A stretch of 64,000 nucleotides of DNA from Escherichia coli (lineage in GTDB: Bacteria > Pseudomonadota > Gammaproteobacteria > Enterobacterales > Enterobacteriaceae), in NCBI RefSeq assembly GCF_003334355.1, contig NZ_QOWP01000005.1, one strand, 5' to 3'. Each line of letters begins with the position of its first letter. Position 1 is the stretch's first letter. Shown in pieces: positions 5,061 to 18,688 of the stretch. The notes beneath the pieces were generated by a model. That model was given only the letters and a program-made list of their open reading frames with translations, was not told where the DNA came from and did not search any database. Made by a program: the position numbers and the translations under genes.

Positions 5061-5678
5061 ATGAACCGCTTTGTGGTGGCCGAACCACTGTGGTGTACAG
5101 GATGTAATACCTGTCTCGCTGCCTGTTCGGACGTGCATAAAACGCAAGGTTTACAGCAACACCCGCGCCTGGCCCTGGCGAAGACGTCAACAATCACTGC
5201 CCCTGTCGTGTGTCATCACTGTGAGGAAGCCCCTTGCCTGCAGGTCTGCCCGGTCAATGCCATCTCTCAGAGGGATGATGCGATCCAACTCAACGAAAGC
5301 CTCTGTATTGGCTGCAAGCTTTGCGCCGTGGTCTGCCCATTTGGCGCAATCAGCGCTTCAGGAAGCCGTCCGGTGAATGCCCATGCGCAATATGTTTTTC
5401 AGGCTGAAGGCTCACTCAAAAACGGCGAAGAAAACGTGCTGCCCCAACATGCGTTGCTGCGCTGGGAACCGGGTGTCCAGACCGTCGCGGTGAAATGCGA
5501 CCTGTGTGATTTCTTGCCAGAAGGTCCGGCCTGCGTTCGCGCTTGCCCGAATCAGGCGTTACGGCTGATCACCGACGATAGCCTGCAACGTCAGATGAAA
5601 GAAAAACAGCGCCTTGCCGCAAGCTGGTTTGCCAATGGCGGGGAGGATCCCCTTTCCCTCACTCAGGAGCAACGCTAA
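5061..5678 (+). CDS. hyfA: Hydrogenase-4 component A, 4Fe-4S ferredoxin-type subunit
   Basis: ORF 5022..5678; start at MNRFVVAEPLWCTGCNTCLAAC gives 205 aa; several CxxCxxCxxxCP iron-sulfur motifs. Confidence 0.93.
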   Translation: MNRFVVAEPLWCTGCNTCLAACSDVHKTQGLQQHPRLALAKTSTITAPVVCHHCEEAPCLQVCPVNAISQRDDAIQLNESLCIGCKLCAVVCPFGAISASGSRPVNAHAQYVFQAEGSLKNGEENVLPQHALLRWEPGVQTVAVKCDLCDFLPEGPACVRACPNQALRLITDDSLQRQMKEKQRLAASWFANGGEDPLSLTQEQR

Positions 5679-7696
5679 TGGATGCCCTGCAATTATTAAC
5701 CTGGTCGCTGATCCTCTATCTGTTTGCCAGTCTGGCTTCGCTGTTTTTACTCGGTCTGGACAGACTGGCTATTAAGCTTTCCGGCATCACATCGCTGGTG
5801 GGCGGCGTGATTGGCATCATCAGCGGAATTACGCAATTACATGCTGGTGTAACTTTAGTCGCCCATTTTGCCACCCCTTTTGACTTTGCCGATTTAACCC
5901 TGCGAATGGATAGCCTCTCGGCATTTATGGTGCTGGTTATCTCCTTGCTGGTGGTGGTTTGTTCGCTCTATTCATTGACTTATATGCGCGAATACGAGGG
6001 CAAAGGCGCGGCGGCGATGGGCTTCTTTATGAATCTTTTCATCGCATCGATGGTTGCCCTGCTGGTGATGGACAACGCTTTTTGGTTCATCGTGCTGTTT
6101 GAAATGATGTCGCTGTCTTCCTGGTTTCTGGTCATTGCCAGGCAGGATAAAACGTCGATCAACGCTGGCATGCTCTACTTTTTTATCGCCCACGCCGGAT
6201 CGGTGCTGATAATGATCGCCTTCTTGCTGATGGGGCGCGAAAGCGGCAGCCTCGATTTTGCCAGTTTCCGCACGCTTTCACTTTCTCCGGGGCTGGCGTC
6301 GGCGGTGTTCCTGCTGGCCTTTTTCGGTTTTGGCGCGAAAGCCGGGATGATGCCGTTGCACAGCTGGTTGCCGCGCGCTCACCCTGCCGCACCATCGCAC
6401 GCTTCAGCGTTGATGTCTGGCGTAATGGTCAAAATCGGTATTTTCGGCATCCTGAAAGTGGCGATGGATCTGCTGGCGCAAACGGGTTTGCCGCTGTGGT
6501 GGGGCATTCTGGTGATGGCGATCGGCGCAATCTCCGCGCTCCTGGGCGTGCTGTATGCGCTGGCGGAACAGGATATCAAACGGCTACTGGCCTGGAGTAC
6601 CGTCGAAAACGTCGGCATTATTTTGCTGGCGGTCGGTGTGGCGATGGTCGGTCTGTCACTGCACGACCCGCTGCTCACCGTGGTTGGACTGCTCGGCGCA
6701 CTGTTTCATCTGCTCAACCATGCGCTGTTCAAAGGGCTGCTATTTCTCGGCGCGGGCGCGATTATTTCGCGTTTGCATACCCACGACATGGAAAAAATGG
6801 GGGCACTGGCGAAACGGATGCCGTGGACAGCCGCAGCATGCCTGATTGGTTGCCTGGCGATATCAGCCCTTCCTCCGCTGAATGGTTTTATCAGCGAATG
6901 GTACACCTGGCAGTCGCTGTTCTCACTAAGTCGTGTGGAAGCCGTAGCGCTACAACTTGCGGGTCCTATTGCTATGGTAATGCTGGCAGTCACTGGTGGG
7001 CTGGCAGTAATGTGCTTCGTAAAAATGTACGGTATTACTTTCTGTGGTGCGCCGCGCAGTACACACGCTGAAGAGGCACAGGAAGTGCCAAATACGATGA
7101 TCGTCGCCATGCTACTGCTCGCGGCACTCTGCGTATTAATTGCGCTTAGTGCCAGTTGGCTGGCACCGAAGATAATGCATATTGCCCATGCGTTTACCGA
7201 TACCCCTCCCGTCACTGTCGCCAGCGGAATAGCACTTGTACCCGGCACGTTTCATACACGGGTCACTCCTTCATTACTGTTGCTGTTACTACTGGCGATG
7301 CCTTTGCTGCCTGGCCTTTACTGGCTGTGGTGTCGTTCGCGCCGCGCAGCGTTTCGTCGCACAGGAGATGCCTGGGCATGCGGCTACAGCTGGGAAAATG
7401 CGATGGCCCCGTCAGGCAATGGCGTGATGCAGCCGCTGCGTGTGGTCTTTTCTGCGCTATTTCGTCTACGACAACAGCTCGACCCTACGCTGAGGCTAAA
7501 TAAAGGTCTTGCGCACGTCACCGCCAGGGCTCAGAGCACAGAACCCTTCTGGGATGAGCGGGTGATCCGCCCCATCGTGAGCGCCACCCAACGGCTGGCC
7601 AAAGAAATACAGCATCTGCAAAGCGGCGACTTTCGTCTCTATTGCCTGTATGTGGTCGCCGCACTGGTTGTGCTGCTAATCGCTATTGCCGTCTAA
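5678..7696 (+). CDS. hyfB: Hydrogenase-4 component B, NuoL/HycC-like membrane antiporter subunit
   Basis: 672-aa polytopic membrane ORF (MDALQLLTWSLILYLFASL...); its ATG overlaps the hyfA stop. Confidence 0.93.
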   Translation: MDALQLLTWSLILYLFASLASLFLLGLDRLAIKLSGITSLVGGVIGIISGITQLHAGVTLVAHFATPFDFADLTLRMDSLSAFMVLVISLLVVVCSLYSLTYMREYEGKGAAAMGFFMNLFIASMVALLVMDNAFWFIVLFEMMSLSSWFLVIARQDKTSINAGMLYFFIAHAGSVLIMIAFLLMGRESGSLDFASFRTLSLSPGLASAVFLLAFFGFGAKAGMMPLHSWLPRAHPAAPSHASALMSGVMVKIGIFGILKVAMDLLAQTGLPLWWGILVMAIGAISALLGVLYALAEQDIKRLLAWSTVENVGIILLAVGVAMVGLSLHDPLLTVVGLLGALFHLLNHALFKGLLFLGAGAIISRLHTHDMEKMGALAKRMPWTAAACLIGCLAISALPPLNGFISEWYTWQSLFSLSRVEAVALQLAGPIAMVMLAVTGGLAVMCFVKMYGITFCGAPRSTHAEEAQEVPNTMIVAMLLLAALCVLIALSASWLAPKIMHIAHAFTDTPPVTVASGIALVPGTFHTRVTPSLLLLLLLAMPLLPGLYWLWCRSRRAAFRRTGDAWACGYSWENAMAPSGNGVMQPLRVVFSALFRLRQQLDPTLRLNKGLAHVTARAQSTEPFWDERVIRPIVSATQRLAKEIQHLQSGDFRLYCLYVVAALVVLLIAIAV

Positions 7697-7706
7697 GGAA
7701 ATCACC

Positions 7707-8653
7707 ATGAGACAAACTCTTTGCGACGGATATCTGGTCATTTTTGCGTTAGCACAGGCCGTGATTCTGCTGATGCTAACCCCACTTTTTACGGGTATTT
7801 CCCGGCAGATACGCGCGCGTATGCACTCCCGCCGCGGGCCGGAGATCTGGCAGGATTATCGCGATATCCACAAACTGTTTAAACGCCAGGAAGTTGCGCC
7901 TATATCTTCAGGTCTGATGTTCCGCCTGATGCCGTGGGTATTAATCAGCAGCATGCTGGTGCTGGCGATGGCCCTACCACTATTTATTACCGTTTCCCTT
8001 TTGCGGGCGGCGGCGATCTGATCACCCTTATCTATCTTCTTGCCCTGTTTCGTTTTTTCTTTGCTCTTTCAGGGCTGGATACCGGAAGCCCGTTTGCGGG
8101 AGTCGGTGCCAGTCGCGAGTTGACGCTCGGCATTCTGGTCGAACCCATGCTCATTCTCTCACTGCTGGTATTGGCGCTGATAGCGGATTCCACGCATATC
8201 GAGATGATCAGCAATACGCTGGCGATGGGCTGGAACTCGCCGCTAACCACCGTACTGGCGTTACTGGCCTGTGGTTTTGCCTGCTTCATAGAGATGGGAA
8301 AAATTCCCTTTGATGTTGCTGAAGCAGAACAGGAATTACAGGAAGGCCCGCTGACCGAATATTCCGGTGCCGGGCTGGCGTTGGCGAAATGGGGACTGGG
8401 GCTGAAACAGGTCGTGATGGCAGCACTGTTTGTGGCCCTGTTTCTGCCCTTTGGGCGCGCGCAAGAACTTTCTCTCACCTGCCTGCTGACTTCACTTGTC
8501 GTTACGCTGCTCAAGGTTTTGCTGATTTTTGTACTGGCTTCAATCGCAGAAAACACGCTGGCACGCGGGCGTTTTTTACTCATTCACCATGTGACCTGGC
8601 TTGGCTTCAGCCTTGCTGCGCTTGCATGGGTCTTCTGGTTAACCGGTCTGTAA
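7707..8653 (+). pseudogene. hyfC: Hydrogenase-4 component C (HycD/NuoH-like membrane subunit), reading frame interrupted
   Basis: N-terminal part MRQTLCDGYLVIFALAQ... (frame of 7707) ends at TGA 8019-8021; the rest (...FPFAGGGDLITLIYLL...WVFWLTGL*) is open only in the -1 frame (track ORF 7934..8653). The span is 947 nt, one base short of an intact 316-codon gene; the break sits at the ccc/tttt run 7996-8002. Confidence 0.85.
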
Positions 8654-8669
8654 GGAGCACTGACGGAAT

Positions 8670-10108
8670 ATGGAAAATCTTGCTCTGACGACGTTAATGC
8701 TGCCTTTTATCGGCGCACTGGTCGTTTCGTTTTCGCCACAACGTCGGGCCGCCGAATGGGGGTTTTGTTCGCCGCACTGACCACGCTGTGCATGTTGTCG
8801 CTGATCTCCGCGTTTTATCAGGCCGATAAAGTTGCCGTCACGTTGACGTTGGTCAACGTGGGGGATGTGGCATTGTTTGGCCTGGTCATTGATCGCGTGA
8901 GTACGCTGATTCTGTTTGTGGTGGTGTTTCTCGGTTTGCTGGTCACGATCTACTCCACGGGTTATCTGACGGATAAAAATCGCGAACACCCGCATAACGG
9001 CACGAATCGTTATTACGCATTTTTGCTGGTGTTTATCGGCGCGATGGCGGGACTGGTACTCTCCTCGACGCTGCTCGGTCAGTTGTTGTTTTTTGAAATT
9101 ACGGGCGGCTGCTCCTGGGCGTTGATCAGTTATTACCAGAGCGATAAAGCGCAGCGTTCAGCACTAAAAGCGTTACTTATCACTCATATCGGCTCGTTGG
9201 GGTTGTATCTTGCCGCCGCCACGCTGTTTTTGCAGACCGGAACGTTTGCGCTTAGCGCGATGAGCGAGTTACACGGCGACGCACGTTATCTGGTTTATGG
9301 CGGCATCCTGTTTGCCGCGTGGGGGAAATCGGCCCAGCTACCGATGCAAGCGTGGCTACCGGACGCAATGGAAGCGCCAACACCGATCAGCGCCTATCTC
9401 CACGCCGCATCGATGGTGAAAGTGGGCGTTTACATTTTTGCCCGCGCCATTATCGACGGCGGCAATATCCCGCATGTGATTGGCGGCGTTGGCATGGTCA
9501 TGGCCCTGGTCACCATTCTTTATGGATTTCTGATGTATTTACCACAGCAGGATATGAAGCGGTTGCTGGCCTGGTCGACCATCACTCAACTTGGCTGGAT
9601 GTTCTTCGGCTTGTCGCTCTCCATCTTCGGCTCGCGGCTGGCGCTGGAGGGTAGCATCGCCTACATCGTCAACCACGCGTTCGCTAAAAGCCTGTTTTTC
9701 CTTGTAGCAGGTGCGCTGAGTTACAGCTGCGGCACGCGCTTGTTGCCGCGTCTGCGTGGCGTATTGCACACCCTGCCGTTGCCTGGCGTGGGTTTCTGCG
9801 TGGCAGCGCTGGCAATTACCGGCGTGCCGCCGTTCAACGGCTTCTTCAGTAAATTCCCGCTGTTTGCTGCCGGTTTTGCGTTGTCAGTGGAGTACTGGAT
9901 CCTGCTGCCCGCCATGATTCTGCTGATGATTGAATCGGTCGCCAGTTTCGCCTGGTTTATTCGCTGGTTTGGTCGCGTCGTGCCTGGCAAACCGAGCGAG
10001 GCCGTCGCCGATGCCGCACCGCTGCCAGGGTCAATGCGCCTGGTGTTGATTGTACTGATTGTGATGTCGCTGATTTCCAGCGTAATCGCCGCGACCTGGT
10101 TGCAGTAA
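8670..10108 (+). pseudogene. hyfD: Hydrogenase-4 component D (NuoM/N-like membrane subunit), reading frame interrupted
   Basis: An SD (aggag) plus ATG at 8670 encodes MENLALTTLMLPFIGALVVSFSPQRRAAEW... and stops at TGA 8778-8780; the main body (GVLFAALTTLCMLS...ATWLQ*) continues in the -1 frame to 10108 (track ORF 8756..10108). The span is 1439 nt, one base short of an intact 480-codon gene; the break is at the G5 run 8758-8762. Confidence 0.85.
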
Positions 10109-10119
10109 GGAGATGATGA

Positions 10120-10770
10120 ATGACCGGTTCTATGATCGTAAATAATCTGGCGGGACTGATGATGCTGACATCACTGTTTGTGATTAGCGTCAAAAGCTAT
10201 CGCCTGTCATGCGGATTTTACGCCTGCCAGTCACTGGTGCTGGTGTCTATTTTCGCCACCCTCTCGTGCCTGTTCGCCGCAGAGCAACTGCTGATCTGGT
10301 CCGCCAGCGCCTTTATCACCAAAGTGCTGCTGGTACCGTTAATCATGACTTACGCTGCACGAAATATTCCCCAGAACATCCCGGAAAAAGCGTTATTCGG
10401 TCCGGCAATGATGGCACTGCTCGCGGCGTTAATTGTCCTGCTTTGCGCATTTGTCGTTCAGCCCGTGAAGCTACCGATGGCTACCGGGCTGAAACCGGCG
10501 CTGGCGGTAGCGTTAGGTCATTTTCTGCTTGGCCTGCTGTGCATTGTCAGCCAGCGCAATATCCTGCGGCAAATTTTTGGTTACTGCCTGATGGAAAACG
10601 GCTCCCATCTGGTGCTGGCGCTTCTTGCCTGGCGAGCACCGGAACTGGTGGAAATAGGTATCGCTACCGACGCCATCTTCGCCGTCATTGTGATGGTGTT
10701 ACTGGCAAGAAAAATATGGCGTACCCACGGCACGCTGGACGTGAACAACTTGACCGCGCTGAAGGGATAA
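10120..10770 (+). CDS. hyfE: Hydrogenase-4 component E (small integral membrane subunit)
   Basis: 216-aa hydrophobic [27 protein letters not shown]... Confidence 0.92.
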
Positions 10771-10774
10771 TGAG

Positions 10775-12355
10775 ATGAGTTATTCTGTGATGTTCGCTTT
10801 ACTCCTGCTCACGCCGCTGCTTTTTTCGCTGCTCTGTTTTGCCTGCCGGAAACGGAGACTTTCTGCGACTCGCACGGTGACCGTATTACATAGCTTAGGG
10901 ATCACACTGCTGCTGATTCTGGCACTCTGGGTGGTCCAAACTGCCGCTGATGCAGGAGAAATATTCGCTGCGGGACTGTGGCTTCATATTGATGGTCTGG
11001 GCGGTTTGTTCCTCGCCATTCTTGGTGTGATTGGCTTTCTCACCGGTATTTACTCGATTGGCTACATGCGTCATGAAGTGGCACACGGCGAGCTTTCACC
11101 CGTTACGCTGTGCGATTACTACGGTTTCTTCCATCTGTTTTTGTTCACCATGCTGCTGGTTGTTACCAGCAATAACCTGATTGTGATGTGGGCGGCGATC
11201 GAAGCCACCACCTTAAGCTCGGCGTTTCTGGTAGGCATTTACGGTCAGCGTTCATCGCTGGAAGCTGCATGGAAGTACATCATTATTTGTACTGTTGGTG
11301 TCGCTTTTGGTCTGTTCGGTACCGTGCTGGTATACGCCAACGCCGCCAGCGTTATGCCGCAGGCAGAAATGGCGATATTCTGGAGCGAGGTTCTTAAGCA
11401 ATCGTCCTTGCTTGACCCAACATTAATGCTGTTGGCCTTTGTGTTTTTGCTAATTGGCTTTGGTACCAAAACCGGGCTATTTCCCATGCACGCCTGGCTG
11501 CCGGATGCTCACAGTGAAGCGCCGAGTCCGGTCAGCGCCCTGCTCTCCGCCGTATTGCTGAACTGCGCGCTGTTGGTGCTGATTCGCTATTACATCATTA
11601 TTTGCCAAGCCATCGGCAGCGATTTCCCCAACCGGTTGTTGCTCATCTTCGGCATGTTGTCGGTTGCCGTGGCGGCATTTTTCATTCTGGTACAGCGGGA
11701 CATTAAGCGTCTGCTGGCGTACTCCAGCGTGGAGAACATGGGGCTGGTCGCGGTGGCGCTAGGCATTGGCGGGCCGCTGGGAATTTTTGCCGCGCTGCTG
11801 CACATCTTAAACCACAGTCTGGCAAAAACGCTGCTGTTCTGCGGTTCCGGCAATGTACTGCTCAAGTACGGCACGCGCGATCTCAACGTCGTCTGTGGGA
11901 TGCTCAAAATCATGCCATTTACCGCCGTGCTGTTTGGCGGCGGTGCGCTGGCGCTGGCAGGGATGCCGCCCTTCAACATTTTTCTTAGCGAATTTATGAC
12001 CATTACCGCCGGACTGGCACGTAATCACCTGCTGATTATCGTCCTGCTGTTATTGCTGTTAACGCTGGTGCTGGCGGGCCTGGTACGGATGGCAGCGCGG
12101 GTGTTAATGGCGAAACCGCCGCAGGCCGTTAACCGGGGTGATCTCGGCTGGTTGACCACCTCGCCAATGGTGATTCTGCTGGTCATGATGCTGGCGATGG
12201 GAACGCATATTCCACAACCTGTCATCAGGATCCTGGCGGGCGCTTCCACTATAGTCCTCTCAGGGACGCACGACCTGCCTGCACAACGTAGCACCTGGCA
12301 TGATTTTTTGCCTTCAGGCACCGCATCTGTTTCGGAGAAACACAGTGAACGTTAA
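10775..12355 (+). CDS. hyfF: Hydrogenase-4 component F (NuoL/M/N-family membrane subunit)
   Basis: 526-aa polytopic membrane ORF ([20 protein letters not shown]...). Confidence 0.92.
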
Positions 12356-14060
12356 TTCATCGTCAAATCGTGGCGAAGCGATTCTCGCCGCCCTGAAAAC
12401 GCAGTTCCCCGGCGCGGTGCTGGATGAAGAGCGACAAACGCCTGAACAGGTCACCATTACGGTGAAAATCAATCTGCTGCCTGACGTTGTACATTATCTT
12501 TATTATCAACATGATGGCTGGCTTCCGGTCCTGTTTGGCAACGACGAGCGGACACTTAACGGTCATTACGCGGTTTATTATGCCCTTTCTATGGAAGGGG
12601 CCGAAAAATGCTGGATCGTAGTGAAGGCACTGGTCGATGCCGACAGTCGGGAGTTTCCGTCAGTCACACCGCGCGTCCCTGCCGCGGTCTGGGGCGAGCG
12701 AGAAATTCGCGATATGTACGGGCTGATTCCGGTTGGCCTGCCGGATCAGCGTCGCCTGGTGTTGCCCGATGACTGGCCGGAAGATATGCATCCGCTGCGC
12801 AAAGATGCGATGGATTATCGACTGCGCCCTGAACCGACGACTGATTCCGAAACGTATCCGTTTATCAATGAGGGCAACAGCGATGCGCAGGTGATCCCTG
12901 TCGGCCCGCTGCATATCACCTCCGATGAACCGGGTCACTTCCGCTTGTTTGTGGATGGCGAGCAAATTGTCGATGCTGATTACCGCCTGTTTTATGTCCA
13001 TCGCGGCATGGAGAAACTGGCAGAAACGCGGATGGGCTACAACGAAGTGACCTTCTTATCAGACCGCGTGTGTGGGATTTGCGGTTTTGCCCACAGTGTG
13101 GCCTATACCAACTCGGTTGAAAATGCACTGGGGATTGAGGTGCCGCAACGAGCGCATACCATTCGCTCGATTCTGCTGGAAGTCGAACGGCTACACAGTC
13201 ATTTGCTCAACCTTGGCCTCTCCTGCCATTTTGTTGGTTTTGATACCGGCTTTATGCAATTTTTCCGCGTGCGGGAAAAGTCGATGACGATGGCGGAATT
13301 GCTGACCGGGTCGCGTAAAACCTACGGTCTGAATCTGATTGGTGGTGTTCGCCGCGATATTCTCAAAGAGCAACGTCTGCAAACGCTGAAACTGGTGCGC
13401 GAGATGCGCGCCGACGTGTCGGAGCTGGTAGAGATGCTGCTTGCTACGCCGAATATGGAACAACGCACTCAGGGCATTGGCATTCTCGACCGACAAATCG
13501 CCCGTGATTATAGCCCTGTAGGGCCGCTGATCCGCGGCAGTGGTTTTGCCCGTGATTTGCGCTTTGATCACCCCTACGCCGACTACGGCAATATTCCAAA
13601 AACACTGTTTACCTTCACCGGCGGCGATGTTTTCTCCCGCGTGATGGTCCGTGTCAAAGAGACGTTTGATTCGCTGGCAATGCTGGAATTTGCCCTCGAC
13701 AACATGCCGGATACCCCGCTGCTGACCGAAGGCTTTAGCTATAAACCTCACGCATTCGCGCTGGGCTTTGTTGAAGCGCCACGCGGTGAAGACGTGCACT
13801 GGAGCATGCTCGGTGATAACCAAAAATTGTTCCGCTGGCGCTGTCGTGCCGCCACCTACGCCAACTGGCCAGTGCTGCGTTACATGCTACGCGGCAATAC
13901 CGTTTCTGACGCACCGCTGATTATCGGTAGCCTTGATCCCTGCTACTCCTGTACCGACCGTGTGACGCTGGTAGATGTGCGCAAGCGCCAGTCAAAAACC
14001 GTGCCGTATAAAGAGATCGAACGCTACGGCATTGATCGTAACCGTTCGCCGCTGAAGTAA
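12345..14060 (+). CDS. hyfG: Hydrogenase-4 [NiFe] large catalytic subunit
   Basis: Track ORF 12300..14060; most plausible start is GTG 12345 ((M)[17 protein letters not shown]...), overlapping the hyfF end. NiFe-binding motifs [11 protein letters not shown] (N-terminal) and DPCYSCTDR (C-terminal). Exact start uncertain. Confidence 0.9.
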
Positions 14061-14069
14061 GGACAGAAG

Positions 14070-14615
14070 ATGCTGAAGTTACTGAAAACTATTATGCGCG
14101 CCGGAACCGCGACGGTGAAATATCCCTTCGCGCCACTGGAGGTCAGCCCAGGCTTTCGCGGGAAACCGGACCTGATGCCCAGCCAATGTATTGCCTGCGG
14201 TGCCTGCGCCTGTGCTTGTCCGGCAAATGCGCTGACTATCCAGACCGACGACCAGCAAAATTCGCGCACCTGGCAGCTCTATCTGGGGCGTTGTATTTAC
14301 TGCGGACGTTGTGAAGAAGTGTGCCCGACCAGAGCCATCCAGCTTACCAATAACTTTGAACTGACCGTCACCAATAAAGCCGATCTCTATACCCGCGCGA
14401 CGTTCCATCTACAACGTTGCAGCCGTTGCGAACGCCCGTTTGCCCCGCAAAAAACCGTCGCACTGGCTGCTGAATTGTTGGCACAGCAACAAAATGCGCC
14501 ACAAAACCGCGAAATGTTGCGGGCGCAAGCGAGCGTCTGCCCGGAGTGCAAACAACGCGCGACGCTGATCAACGACGATACAGATGTACCGCTGGTGGCT
14601 AAGGAGCAGCTATGA
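14070..14615 (+). CDS. hyfH: Hydrogenase-4 component H, 2x[4Fe-4S] ferredoxin-like subunit
   Basis: 181-aa ORF with two CxxCxxCxxxCP motifs ([24 protein letters not shown]). Confidence 0.93.
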
Positions 14616-15370
14616 GTCCAGTGCTTACACAACATGTCAGCCAGCCCATCACGCTGGATGAGCAAACGCAAAAGATGAAGCGGCATTTGCTACAGGATAT
14701 CCGTCGCTCGGCTTACGTTTATCGCGTCGATTGCGGCGGCTGCAACGCCTGTGAAATCGAAATTTTTGCCGCCATCACACCCGTATTCGACGCAGAACGT
14801 TTTGGCATTAAGGTTGTTTCATCACCGCGTCACGCCGATATTTTGTTATTTACTGGCGCAGTCACCCGGGCGATGCGTATGCCTGCACTTCGGGCGTATG
14901 AGTCTGCCCCCGATCATAAAATTTGTGTTTCCTACGGCGCGTGCGGTGTCGGCGGCGGTATTTTCCACGATCTCTACAGCGTCTGGGGCGGTAGCGACAC
15001 CATTGTCCCCATTGATGTTTGGATCCCCGGCAGCCCGCCAACACCGGCCGCCACCATTCACGGTTTCGCCGTGGCGCTCGGTTTGCTGCAACGGAAGATT
15101 CACGCGGTGGATTATCGCGATCCCACCGGGGTGACTATGCAACCGTTGTGGCCGCAGATCCCGCCATCACAGCGTATCGCCATTGAGCGAGAAGCGCGGC
15201 GGCTGGCGGGCTATCGTCAGGGGCGAGAAATTTGCGATCGGCTCCTGCGCCATTTAAGCGACGATCCTACAGGAAATCGGGTTAACACCTGGTTGCGCGA
15301 TGCCGACGATCCACGTCTCAATAGTATCGTTCAGCAACTCTTTCGCGTACTCCGGGGGTTACATGACTGA
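14612..15370 (+). CDS. hyfI: Hydrogenase-4 small subunit (NuoB-like)
   Basis: 252-aa ORF; [10 protein letters not shown] cluster-binding region; start overlaps the hyfH stop (ATGA). Confidence 0.93.
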
Positions 15371-15776
15371 AGAGTGCGGGGAAATTGTTTTCTGGACGCT
15401 GCGAAAAAAGTTTGTCGCCAGTAGCGACGAGATGCCGGAACACAGCTCTCAGGTAATGTATTACTCGCTGGCTATCGGTCATCACGTTGGCGTGATTGAT
15501 TGTCTGAATGTCGCCTTCCCCTGCCCACTGACGGAATACGAAGATTGGCTTGCACTGGTCGAAGAGGAGCAAGCCCGACGTAAGATGCTGGGGGTGATGA
15601 CTTTTGGTGAGATTGTTATTGACGCCAGCCACACCGCCTTGTTGACCCGGGCATTCGCGCCACTGGCGGATGACGCGACGTCTGTGTGGCAGGCGCGTAG
15701 CATTCAATTCATTCATCTGTTGGATGAAATTGTGCAGGAACCGGCCATCTATCTGATGGCCAGAAAAATTACGTGA
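15363..15776 (+). CDS. hyfJ: Hydrogenase-4 component J (HycH-like maturation factor)
   Basis: Track ORF 15300..15776; start at internal Met ([23 protein letters not shown]...) gives 137 aa, overlapping the hyfI 3' end. Confidence 0.9.
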
Positions 15777-15805
15777 GAAGGATTTCTCATTAATAAGGAC
15801 TGTTG

Positions 15806-17818
15806 ATGGCTATGTCAGACGAGGCGATGTTTGCCCCGCCGCAAGGAATAACAATTGAAGCGGTAAACGGAATGCTCGCGGAGCGGTTAGCGCAGAAACA
15901 CGGTAAGGCGTCTTTATTACGCGCCTTCATCCCGCTGCCGCCGCCGTTCAGCCCGGTACAACTTATTGAACTGCATGTTCTCAAAAGCAACTTCTATTAC
16001 CGCTACCATGATGATGGCAGCGATGTGACGGCAACAACAGAGTATCAGGGCGAGATGGTCGATTATTCGCGTCACGCCGTCCTTCTCGGCAGTAGTGGAA
16101 TGGCGGAGCTACGCTTTATTCGCACCCACGGCAGTCGTTTTACTCCCCAGGATTGCACACTGTTTAACTGGCTGGCGCGGATAATCACCCCGGTTCTGCA
16201 ATCATGGCTCAATGATGAAGAACAGCAGGTGGCGCTGCGTTTGCTGGAGAAAGATCGCGATCATCATCGGGTACTGGTTGATATTACTAATGCAGTGCTG
16301 TCACATCTTGATCTCGACGATCTGATCGCTGACGTCGCTCGTGAGATCCATCATTTTTTCGGTCTGGCTTCAGTCAGTATGGTACTGGGCGATCATCGAA
16401 AGAACGAGAAGTTTAGCCTGTGGTGCAGCGATCTTTCTGCCTCACATTGTGCGTGTCTGCCACGCAATATGCCTGGCGACAGTGTATTGCTGACACAAAC
16501 GCTACAAACCCGACAACCGACCTTGACGCACCGTGCAGACGATCTGTTTCTCTGGCAACGCGACCCGTTATTACTCTTACTTGCATCTAACGGCTGCGAA
16601 TCTGCGCTCCTTATACCGCTTACCTTTGGCAACCATACACCGGGTGCATTGTTGCTGGCGCATACCTCTTCCACTCTCTTTAGTGAGGAAAACTGCCAGC
16701 TACTACAACACATAGCCGATCGCATCGCTATTGCCGTTGGCAATGCCGATGCCTGGCGTAGCATGACCGATTTGCAGGAAAGTTTGCAGCAAGAAAACCA
16801 CCAGCTTAGCGAGCAGCTCCTTTCGAATCTGGGCGTCGGTGACATTATCTATCAAAGCCAGGCAATGGAAGACCTGCTCCAGCAGGTAGATATTGTGGCG
16901 AAGAGCGACAGTACAGTGTTGATTTGTGGTGAAACCGGAACCGGCAAAGAGGTGATCGCCAGAGCGATCCATCAACTTAGCCCGCGACACGACAAGCCGC
17001 TGGTCAAAATCAACTGCGCTGCCATCCCCGCCAGTCTTCTGGAAAGTGAGTTATTCGGTCATGACAAAGGGGCGTTTACTGGTGCGATTAATACCCATCG
17101 TGGTCGTTTTGAAATTGCCGATGGCGGCACGTTGTTTCTCGATGAAATTGGCGATCTGCCGTTAGAACTTCAGCCTAAACTGCTGCGCGTATTGCAGGAA
17201 CGGGAGATTGAGCGTCTCGGCGGGAGTAGAACGATCCCGGTGAATGTCAGAGTCATTGCCGCCACCAACCGTGATTTGTGGCAAATGGTTGAAGATCGCC
17301 AGTTTCGCAGCGATCTCTTTTATCGCCTGAATGTCTTCCCACTGGAATTGCCGCCGCTACGCGACCGTCCGGAAGATATCCCTCTTTTAGCAAAGCATTT
17401 CACGCAAAAAATGGCGCGCCATATGAATCGTTCAATTGACGCCATCCCGACCGAGGCGCTACGCCAGTTGATGTCGTGGGACTGGCCGGGCAACGTGCGC
17501 GAGCTGGAAAACGTGATTGAGCGAGCGGTACTGCTGACTCGCGGTAACAGTCTGAATTTACATCTTAATGTCCGACAAAGCCGTTTACTGCCGACGCTAA
17601 ATGAAGATTCAGCGCTTCGCAGTTCAATGGCGCAGTTGCTGCACCCGACGACGCCAGAGAATGACGAAGAAGAACGTCAGCGCATTGTTCAGGTATTGCG
17701 AGAAACCAATGGCATTGTTGCCGGGCCCCGTGGCGCGGCGACACGATTAGGGATGAAGCGCACCACGCTGCTGTCACGAATGCAGCGTCTGGGGATCTCG
17801 GTTCGCGAGGTGTTGTAA
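15806..17818 (+). CDS. hyfR: Sigma-54-dependent transcriptional activator of the hyf operon (FhlA paralog)
   Basis: 670 aa from MAMSDEAMF...; AAA+ sigma-54 interaction domain with Walker A GETGTGKE and the GAFTGA motif ([15 protein letters not shown]); C-terminal HTH. Confidence 0.93.
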
Positions 17819-17839
17819 TCTGCTTTTGCAGGAGTATGC

Positions 17840-18688
17840 ATGAGCAACAAACTCTCTTTCGACTTGCAGTTGAGCGCCAGAAAAGCGGCAATCGCTGAAC
17901 GGATTGCCGCCCATAAAATTGCCCGCAGTAAAGTGTCGGTCTTTTTAATGGCGATGTCCGCTGGCGTGTTTATGGCGATCGGATTTACTTTTTACCTTTC
18001 CGTTATCGCCGATGCCCCGTCTTCACAGGCATTAACCCATCTGGTGGGCGGCCTTTGCTTTACACTCGGCTTTATTTTGCTGGCGGTTTGCGGCACCAGC
18101 CTGTTCACCTCGTCGGTAATGACGGTGATGGCAAAAAGTCGGGGCGTTATTAGTTGGCGAACTTGGCTGATTAACGCACTTCTGGTGGCCTGCGGTAATC
18201 TGGCAGGTATTGCCTGTTTCAGTTTGTTAATCTGGTTTTCCGGGCTGGTGATGAGTGAAAACGCGATGTGGGGAGTCGCGGTTTTACACTGCGCCGAGGG
18301 CAAAATGCATCATACATTTACTGAATCTGTCAGCCTCGGCATTATGTGCAATCTGATGGTTTGCCTGGCGCTTTGGATGAGTTATTGCGGGCGTTCGTTA
18401 TGCGACAAAATCGTCGCCATGATTTTGCCCATCACCCTGTTTGTCGCCAGTGGCTTTGAGCACTGTATCGCCAATTTGTTTGTGATTCCGTTCGCCATTG
18501 CCATTCGCCATTTCGCCCCTCCCCCCTTCTGGCAACTGGCGCACAGTAGCGCAGACAATTTTCCGGCACTGACGGTAAGCCATTTTATTACCGCCAATCT
18601 GCTCCCGGTGATGCTGGGTAATATTATCGGCGGTGCAGTGCTGGTGAGTATGTGTTATCGGGCTATTTATTTACGTCAGGAATCCTGA
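17840..18688 (+). CDS. focB: Formate channel FocB (formate/nitrite transporter family)
   Basis: 282-aa membrane ORF (MSNKLSFDLQLSARKAAIAER...), last gene of the hyf cluster. Confidence 0.9.
   Translation: MSNKLSFDLQLSARKAAIAERIAAHKIARSKVSVFLMAMSAGVFMAIGFTFYLSVIADAPSSQALTHLVGGLCFTLGFILLAVCGTSLFTSSVMTVMAKSRGVISWRTWLINALLVACGNLAGIACFSLLIWFSGLVMSENAMWGVAVLHCAEGKMHHTFTESVSLGIMCNLMVCLALWMSYCGRSLCDKIVAMILPITLFVASGFEHCIANLFVIPFAIAIRHFAPPPFWQLAHSSADNFPALTVSHFITANLLPVMLGNIIGGAVLVSMCYRAIYLRQES

Follow-up and report, generated by a model that had tools for sequence, protein, structure and literature searches.

In enzymes of the FHL and complex-I types, the HycD/NuoH subunit is where the peripheral arm meets the membrane arm (structures 7Z0S and 6CFW). 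For the hyfC gene analyzed here, the closest described members of this family are the intact HyfC of Escherichia coli K-12 (b2483, NP_416978), which is the same gene with the same fold, and HycD (PDB 7Z0S chain D), its paralogue in formate hydrogenlyase-1. Background on hydrogenase 4 (Hyd-4) is given in PMC7384014 and bioRxiv 10.1101/563510. In K-12, Hyd-4 activity was undetected even after promoter replacement (PMC7654741), which fits weak selection to keep the hyf operon. Broken copies of hyfC are also on record. BL21(DE3) (ECD_02375/ECD_RS25295), REL606 and ATCC 8739 (ECOLC_RS06410) carry a C deletion, a 947-nt span and a premature stop identical to those found in the window (the whole 64,000-nt stretch of E. 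coli DNA that was analyzed), and a paper on a BL21(DE3) metabolic model classes hyfC (b2483/ECD_02375) as 'Pseudogene/Frameshifted' in its supplementary tables (PMC6150544). The same supplementary tables list dcuS, caiB, galM, xylG and btuB of BL21(DE3) together with hyfC. These five are likewise clonally inherited, PGAP-flagged pseudogenes caused by single-base indels in homopolymers, and hyfC shows no substantive difference from them, being one more entry of this kind. In PMC5909237, hyfC is named only outside the main text, and a search for literature on the hyfC frameshift, hydrogenase 4 or the hyf operon in BL21 found nothing useful in main texts.

The window comprises purC-bamC-dapA-gcvR-bcp-hyfABCDEFGHIJR-focB-yfgO-bepA and is colinear with K-12 MG1655. 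Its hyfC lies between hyfB and hyfD in hyfABCDEFGHIJR-focB, which is the orthologous place. The features of the locus are as follows.

7707..8653, + strand: hyfC, predicted pseudogene of 947 nt, one base less than the intact 948 nt; hydrogenase-4/FHL-2 membrane subunit, homologue of NuoH and HycD.
7996..7998, + strand: the lesion, a single-C deletion that shortens the C4 of intact alleles to C3; a T4 run comes next at 7999-8002 (aligned against K-12, BL21 and ATCC 8739).
8019..8021, + strand: premature TGA in the original frame; the product has 97 native residues and a 7-residue out-of-frame tail (LLRAAAI), 104 aa in all.
8003..8653, + strand: untranslated hyfC remnant; its -1 frame encodes residues from about 100 to 315, among them the conserved EAEQELQEGPLTEYSG loop.
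8670..10108, + strand: hyfD pseudogene, antiporter-like membrane subunit, with G5 at 8758-8762 where K-12 has G6; 36 aa, ending at TGA 8778-8780.
5061..18688, + strand: rest of the hyfABCDEFGHIJR-focB operon, with hyfA, B, E, F, G, H, I, J, R and focB as intact ORFs (PSS-12 annotation).

Translation of hyfC from the ATG at 7707 runs for 104 codons and stops at the TGA at 8019-8021, and the conserved remainder (FPFAGGGDLITLIYLL ... WVFWLTGL*) is open in the -1 frame only and ends with the TAA at 8651-8653. From start to stop the gene measures 947 nt, one short of a multiple of three, compared with 948 nt in K-12. A preliminary description of this stretch, made from its letters, had given the same start, stop and end, the same span and the same switch of frame at the C3/T4 run, and all of these were confirmed. 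It had further expected that alignment to an intact orthologue would identify the missing base and that one added base would restore a continuous 315-aa ORF, and both expectations were borne out by the comparison with K-12. When the window, BL21(DE3), ATCC 8739 and K-12 were aligned base by base, 18 substitutions and one indel were found; at the indel site K-12 reads GTTTCCCCTTTTGCG, while the window, BL21(DE3) and ATCC 8739 all read GTTTCCCTTTTGCG. The run is GTTT-CCC-TTTT in the window and GTTT-CCCC-TTTT in K-12, so that one C is the sole indel between them. The alternative that the missing base is a T was rejected, because the alignment puts the indel in the C run and the T4 is the same in K-12. 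After reinsertion of one C, the window gene encodes a continuous 315-aa protein that is colinear with K-12 HyfC and differs from it at 5 aa. The sequence is thus altered from codon 98 onwards, with the stop at codon 105. As the frame break is a deterministic result of orthologue comparison, no chance model is needed.

The repaired HyfC (315 aa) matched Pfam NADHdh (PF00146) over residues 18-312 (E = 6.2e-56), and its best solved homologue was HycD of formate hydrogenlyase-1 (7z0s_D), aligned over residues 11-312 (E = 3.8e-92), followed by MbhM and the ND1/NuoH subunits of complex I. The NCBIfam NuoH models were matched only under their curated cut-offs, which is expected because HyfC is a hydrogenase paralogue. 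The 104-aa fragment had no match among the NCBIfam models. In the window, the full NADHdh domain is not carried by a single uninterrupted frame: the frameshift deletes about 70% of the domain, including the glutamate-rich loop EAEQELQEGPLTEYSG that is conserved with HycD, and leaves a stub with 97 native residues out of 315 (about 31%). Compared with K-12 HyfC and HycD, the window copy stops after residue 97 and is without the C-terminal two thirds of the fold. As this subunit joins the two arms of the enzyme, such a stub would be unable to support Hyd-4 assembly. Loss of HyfC function is inferred here from the truncation itself, and judged by its sequence the window hyfC is a pseudogene of the HyfC/HycD/NuoH family that would not count as a functional member.

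Two readings would preserve a working product from the two frames, and we regard both as very improbable. Under programmed recoding, some full-length HyfC would be made because ribosomes shift to the -1 frame, or RNA polymerase slips, at the TTTCCCTTTT tract. The shift required is indeed -1, the frames can be joined within an overlap at 7883-8018, where TTTCCCT (7993) and CCCTTTT (7996) are heptamers of the X3Y3 type, and the downstream hyf genes are still intact. However, both heptamers are out of phase for X_XXY_YYZ, with the first base at codon position 2 (phase 1, not 2), and no in-phase slippery heptamer was found in the overlap. Efficient slippage of RNA polymerase takes about 8 or more A or T in a run, while the runs here are 3-4 nt, the longest being T4, and are too short for transcriptional slippage. 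The sequence downstream of the lesion is the same in intact alleles, and therefore no dedicated stimulator has evolved. Nor is the two-frame layout conserved, as a C4 hyfC encoding the protein in a single frame is present in about 93% of the E. coli genomes with hyf. Moreover, hyfD is independently broken in the genomes that carry the C3 allele.

The second of these readings, a split gene, fares no better. It holds that the 104-aa N-terminal piece and a separately started C-terminal piece (e.g. from GTG 7934) make up a working two-chain HyfC. An ORF of 239 aa from GTG 7934 to 8653 is open, and its C-terminal part matches NuoH models; but the GTG lies inside the translated upstream frame, and a restart there adds about 20 out-of-frame residues. 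No Shine-Dalgarno-like ribosome-binding sequence was found before the restart candidates (GTG 7934, TTG 8120, ATG 8147 and later ones). The break also falls inside the membrane domain, and in the structures of HycD, MbhM and NuoH this subunit is a single chain.

The distribution of the allele supports loss by ordinary gene decay. Megablast of window positions 7600-8760 against 5426 complete E. coli genomes found the region in 4297; in the other 1129 (21%) the hyfC region was unmatched, so the operon is often absent. Alleles were counted by exact match of an 88-nt probe over the lesion (7983-8070), and the exact C3 allele was present in 305 of the 4297 hyf-bearing genomes; at least 20 of these are laboratory descendants of strain B, which inflates the count. 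Spread-sampled genomes without the C3 allele all span at least 89 nt at the probe, consistent with C4. Among the top matches were BL21(DE3), REL606, ATCC 8739 and strain C, together with isolates from egret, dog, mouse, chicken, cattle and humans; all of these are 99.9% identical to the window over this region and equal to it in length there. Over 1161 nt the window differs from BL21(DE3) and ATCC 8739 by one SNP, at 8395, where its private A contrasts with the G of all the 12 further hyfC sequences in the comparison. The window is not from a B strain, and the genomes nearest to it are human faecal isolates (PSS-12 and MLI023K1/K2). The closest relatives of the window, about 100% identical over 24 kb, also have C3.

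Ten C3 carriers including the window are 0-2 SNPs apart over 1.19 kb and form one haplotype; C4 haplotypes lie 15-20 sites away over the same length. When the C was restored on the window haplotype and the 5426 genomes were searched again, no C4 copy within about 1 SNP was found, and the best matches were still C3 genomes with a one-base gap. The same lesion thus occurs in multiple genomes on a common haplotype, as expected of a vertically inherited pseudogene (local haplotype comparison). These results indicate that the hyfC break is a real, inherited one-base deletion, identical by descent, and a case of ordinary gene decay. The preliminary description had left two options open, genuine inactivation by slipped-strand loss and a homopolymer-length sequencing error. 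The first is supported by the 305 genomes on one haplotype, with slippage itself as the probable route of the loss; the second, under which the true genome would have C4 and the assembly would have dropped one base, is contradicted by them and is hardly credible. Some platforms are known to miscount the bases of homopolymers, and the window comes without read data of its own. However, a run of 3-4 bases is far shorter than those in which such errors become systematic, and the C3 genomes were sequenced independently in many laboratories and on many platforms, from the Sanger-era REL606, BL21(DE3) and ATCC 8739 to hybrid assemblies. An artefact would also have to be strictly tied to one SNP haplotype and to recur in the nearest relatives. 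A phase-variable contingency locus, in which switching between C3 and C4 would turn Hyd-4 off and on, is just as hard to credit: the hyfC lesion does lie in a homopolymer, as does that of hyfD (G5/G6), but runs of 3-4 nt fall far short of the 7 or more that is typical of known contingency tracts, C3 sits on one haplotype whose C4 version was not found among the 5426 genomes, and the independently kept laboratory derivatives of strain B are all still C3.

Annotation follows the same picture. In BL21(DE3), ATCC 8739 and PSS-12, PGAP gives hyfC as one 947-nt pseudogene marked 'frameshifted' (in PSS-12, a genome near-identical to that of the window, at identical coordinates), and the same flag was found in 6 further C3 carriers sampled evenly from the match lists. 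Contrary to the earlier expectation that pipelines would split or drop the gene, RefSeq thus keeps it as a single feature. The hyfC lesion is already known, being annotated in RefSeq and on record for BL21(DE3).

A second frameshift, absent from the preliminary description, lies in hyfD, and hyfC is neither the only nor, by the comparison below, probably the first lesion of the operon. Where K-12 has TGGGGGGTTTT, the alignment shows a gap in the window, leaving G5 at 8758-8762, and the frame from the ATG at 8670 ends after 36 codons. The exact 88-mer with hyfD-G5 is present in at least 988 of 4289 genomes, about three times the number with hyfC-C3. In every C3 carrier examined, hyfD was marked 'frameshifted' by PGAP and G5 was confirmed by alignment, while hyfC was intact in 4 of 5 evenly sampled hyfD-G5 carriers. 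The simplest history would be that hyfD broke first and that hyfC, or hyfB in other sublineages, was struck later. The nesting of C3 within G5 was established at sequence level for 10 of the 305 carriers, and a C3 genome with G6 and at least 2 extra SNPs could escape this comparison. Two of the four G5 carriers with intact hyfC, 08-00022 and 1500, have an additional 'frameshifted' hyfB. The hyfB frameshifts in G5 genomes show independent further decay of the membrane arm in other sublineages. In strain 1500, moreover, a hyfC haplotype like that of K-12 is followed by a hyfD 5' haplotype like that of the window, a combination that suggests recombination inside the hyf operon.

The remaining genes of the window operon (hyfA, B, E, F, G, H, I, J, R and focB) have zero internal stops and 0-9 aa differences from K-12. 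With the frame repaired, hyfC has a pN/pS of 0.14 against K-12 and hyfD one of 0.02; the other genes range from 0.0 to 0.3. These low values indicate that the divergence arose mostly under purifying selection, and therefore that the lesions are recent relative to the haplotype split. The intactness of the remaining hyf genes, hyfR and focB could reflect a recent lesion or retained function of part of the operon.

We consider it very probable that one C was lost in the ancestor of a lineage and inherited vertically, giving a non-functional HyfC in an operon already hit by the hyfD change from G6 to G5. In this history, the C4 run of hyfC would have lost one C, most simply by replication slippage, in the ancestor of an E. 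coli lineage that includes the B strains (BL21 and REL606), ATCC 8739, strain C and many commensal or environmental isolates, and the deletion would have been passed down ever since. The frame shift at codon 98 and the stop at codon 105 would abolish HyfC function and, with it, presumably that of Hyd-4, in an operon that the hyfD lesion had probably disabled beforehand. In addition, Rho-dependent polarity on the downstream genes may follow from the stretch of 650 untranslated nt ahead of hyfD.

A further difference between the window and K-12 was found in hyfG (12345-14060), the gene for the catalytic subunit, which encodes 571 aa in the window and 555 aa in K-12. K-12 is without 48 nt that correspond to window positions 13510-13557, and this segment is flanked by 10-nt direct repeats (GCCCGTGATT) at 13500-13509 and 13548-13557. 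The 16 extra residues align without gaps to HycE (7z0s_E) and to the complex I 49-kDa/NuoD subunit, and they contain the conserved GPxxRGSG...DLR. The long hyfG is therefore taken to be ancestral and the K-12 form to have arisen by a repeat-mediated deletion. The long allele was counted in 2180 of 4295 genomes and the short one in about 2115; the window carries the long allele, in contrast to BL21-RIPL, which has the short allele. No mention of the 16-residue gap of K-12 hyfG was found in the papers on E. coli Hyd-4 that were consulted. This deletion could help to explain why Hyd-4 activity has never been detected in K-12.

Taken alone, the hyfC finding matters little, as RefSeq flags it and the BL21(DE3) metabolic model excludes it. 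Because hyfC and hyfD are both broken, BL21, REL606, ATCC 8739, strain C and their relatives would have no Hyd-4/FHL-2 from the native operon, and K-12 gene content should not be assumed in hydrogen-metabolism experiments or models that use such hosts. Several hits to the operon were seen across the species: it is absent from about 21% of genomes, at least 23% of carriers have hyfD-G5, nested sublineages add hyfC-C3 or frameshifts in hyfB, and the 16-residue in-frame deletion of the conserved GPxxRGSG core segment of HyfG occurs in about half of carriers, including K-12. We tentatively raise the possibility, at less than even confidence, that the hyfC frameshift is one step of a species-wide, multi-hit erosion of FHL-2 in which the K-12 reference is itself decayed, and that this at least partly explains why Hyd-4 has long gone undetected in K-12, strong promoters notwithstanding. 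If this is true, native Hyd-4 activity should be looked for in strains whose hyfG is long and whose hyfB, hyfC and hyfD are all intact. The several independent hyf lesions, together with the common K-12-type HyfG deletion, bear on why Hyd-4 of E. coli has never been shown to be active.
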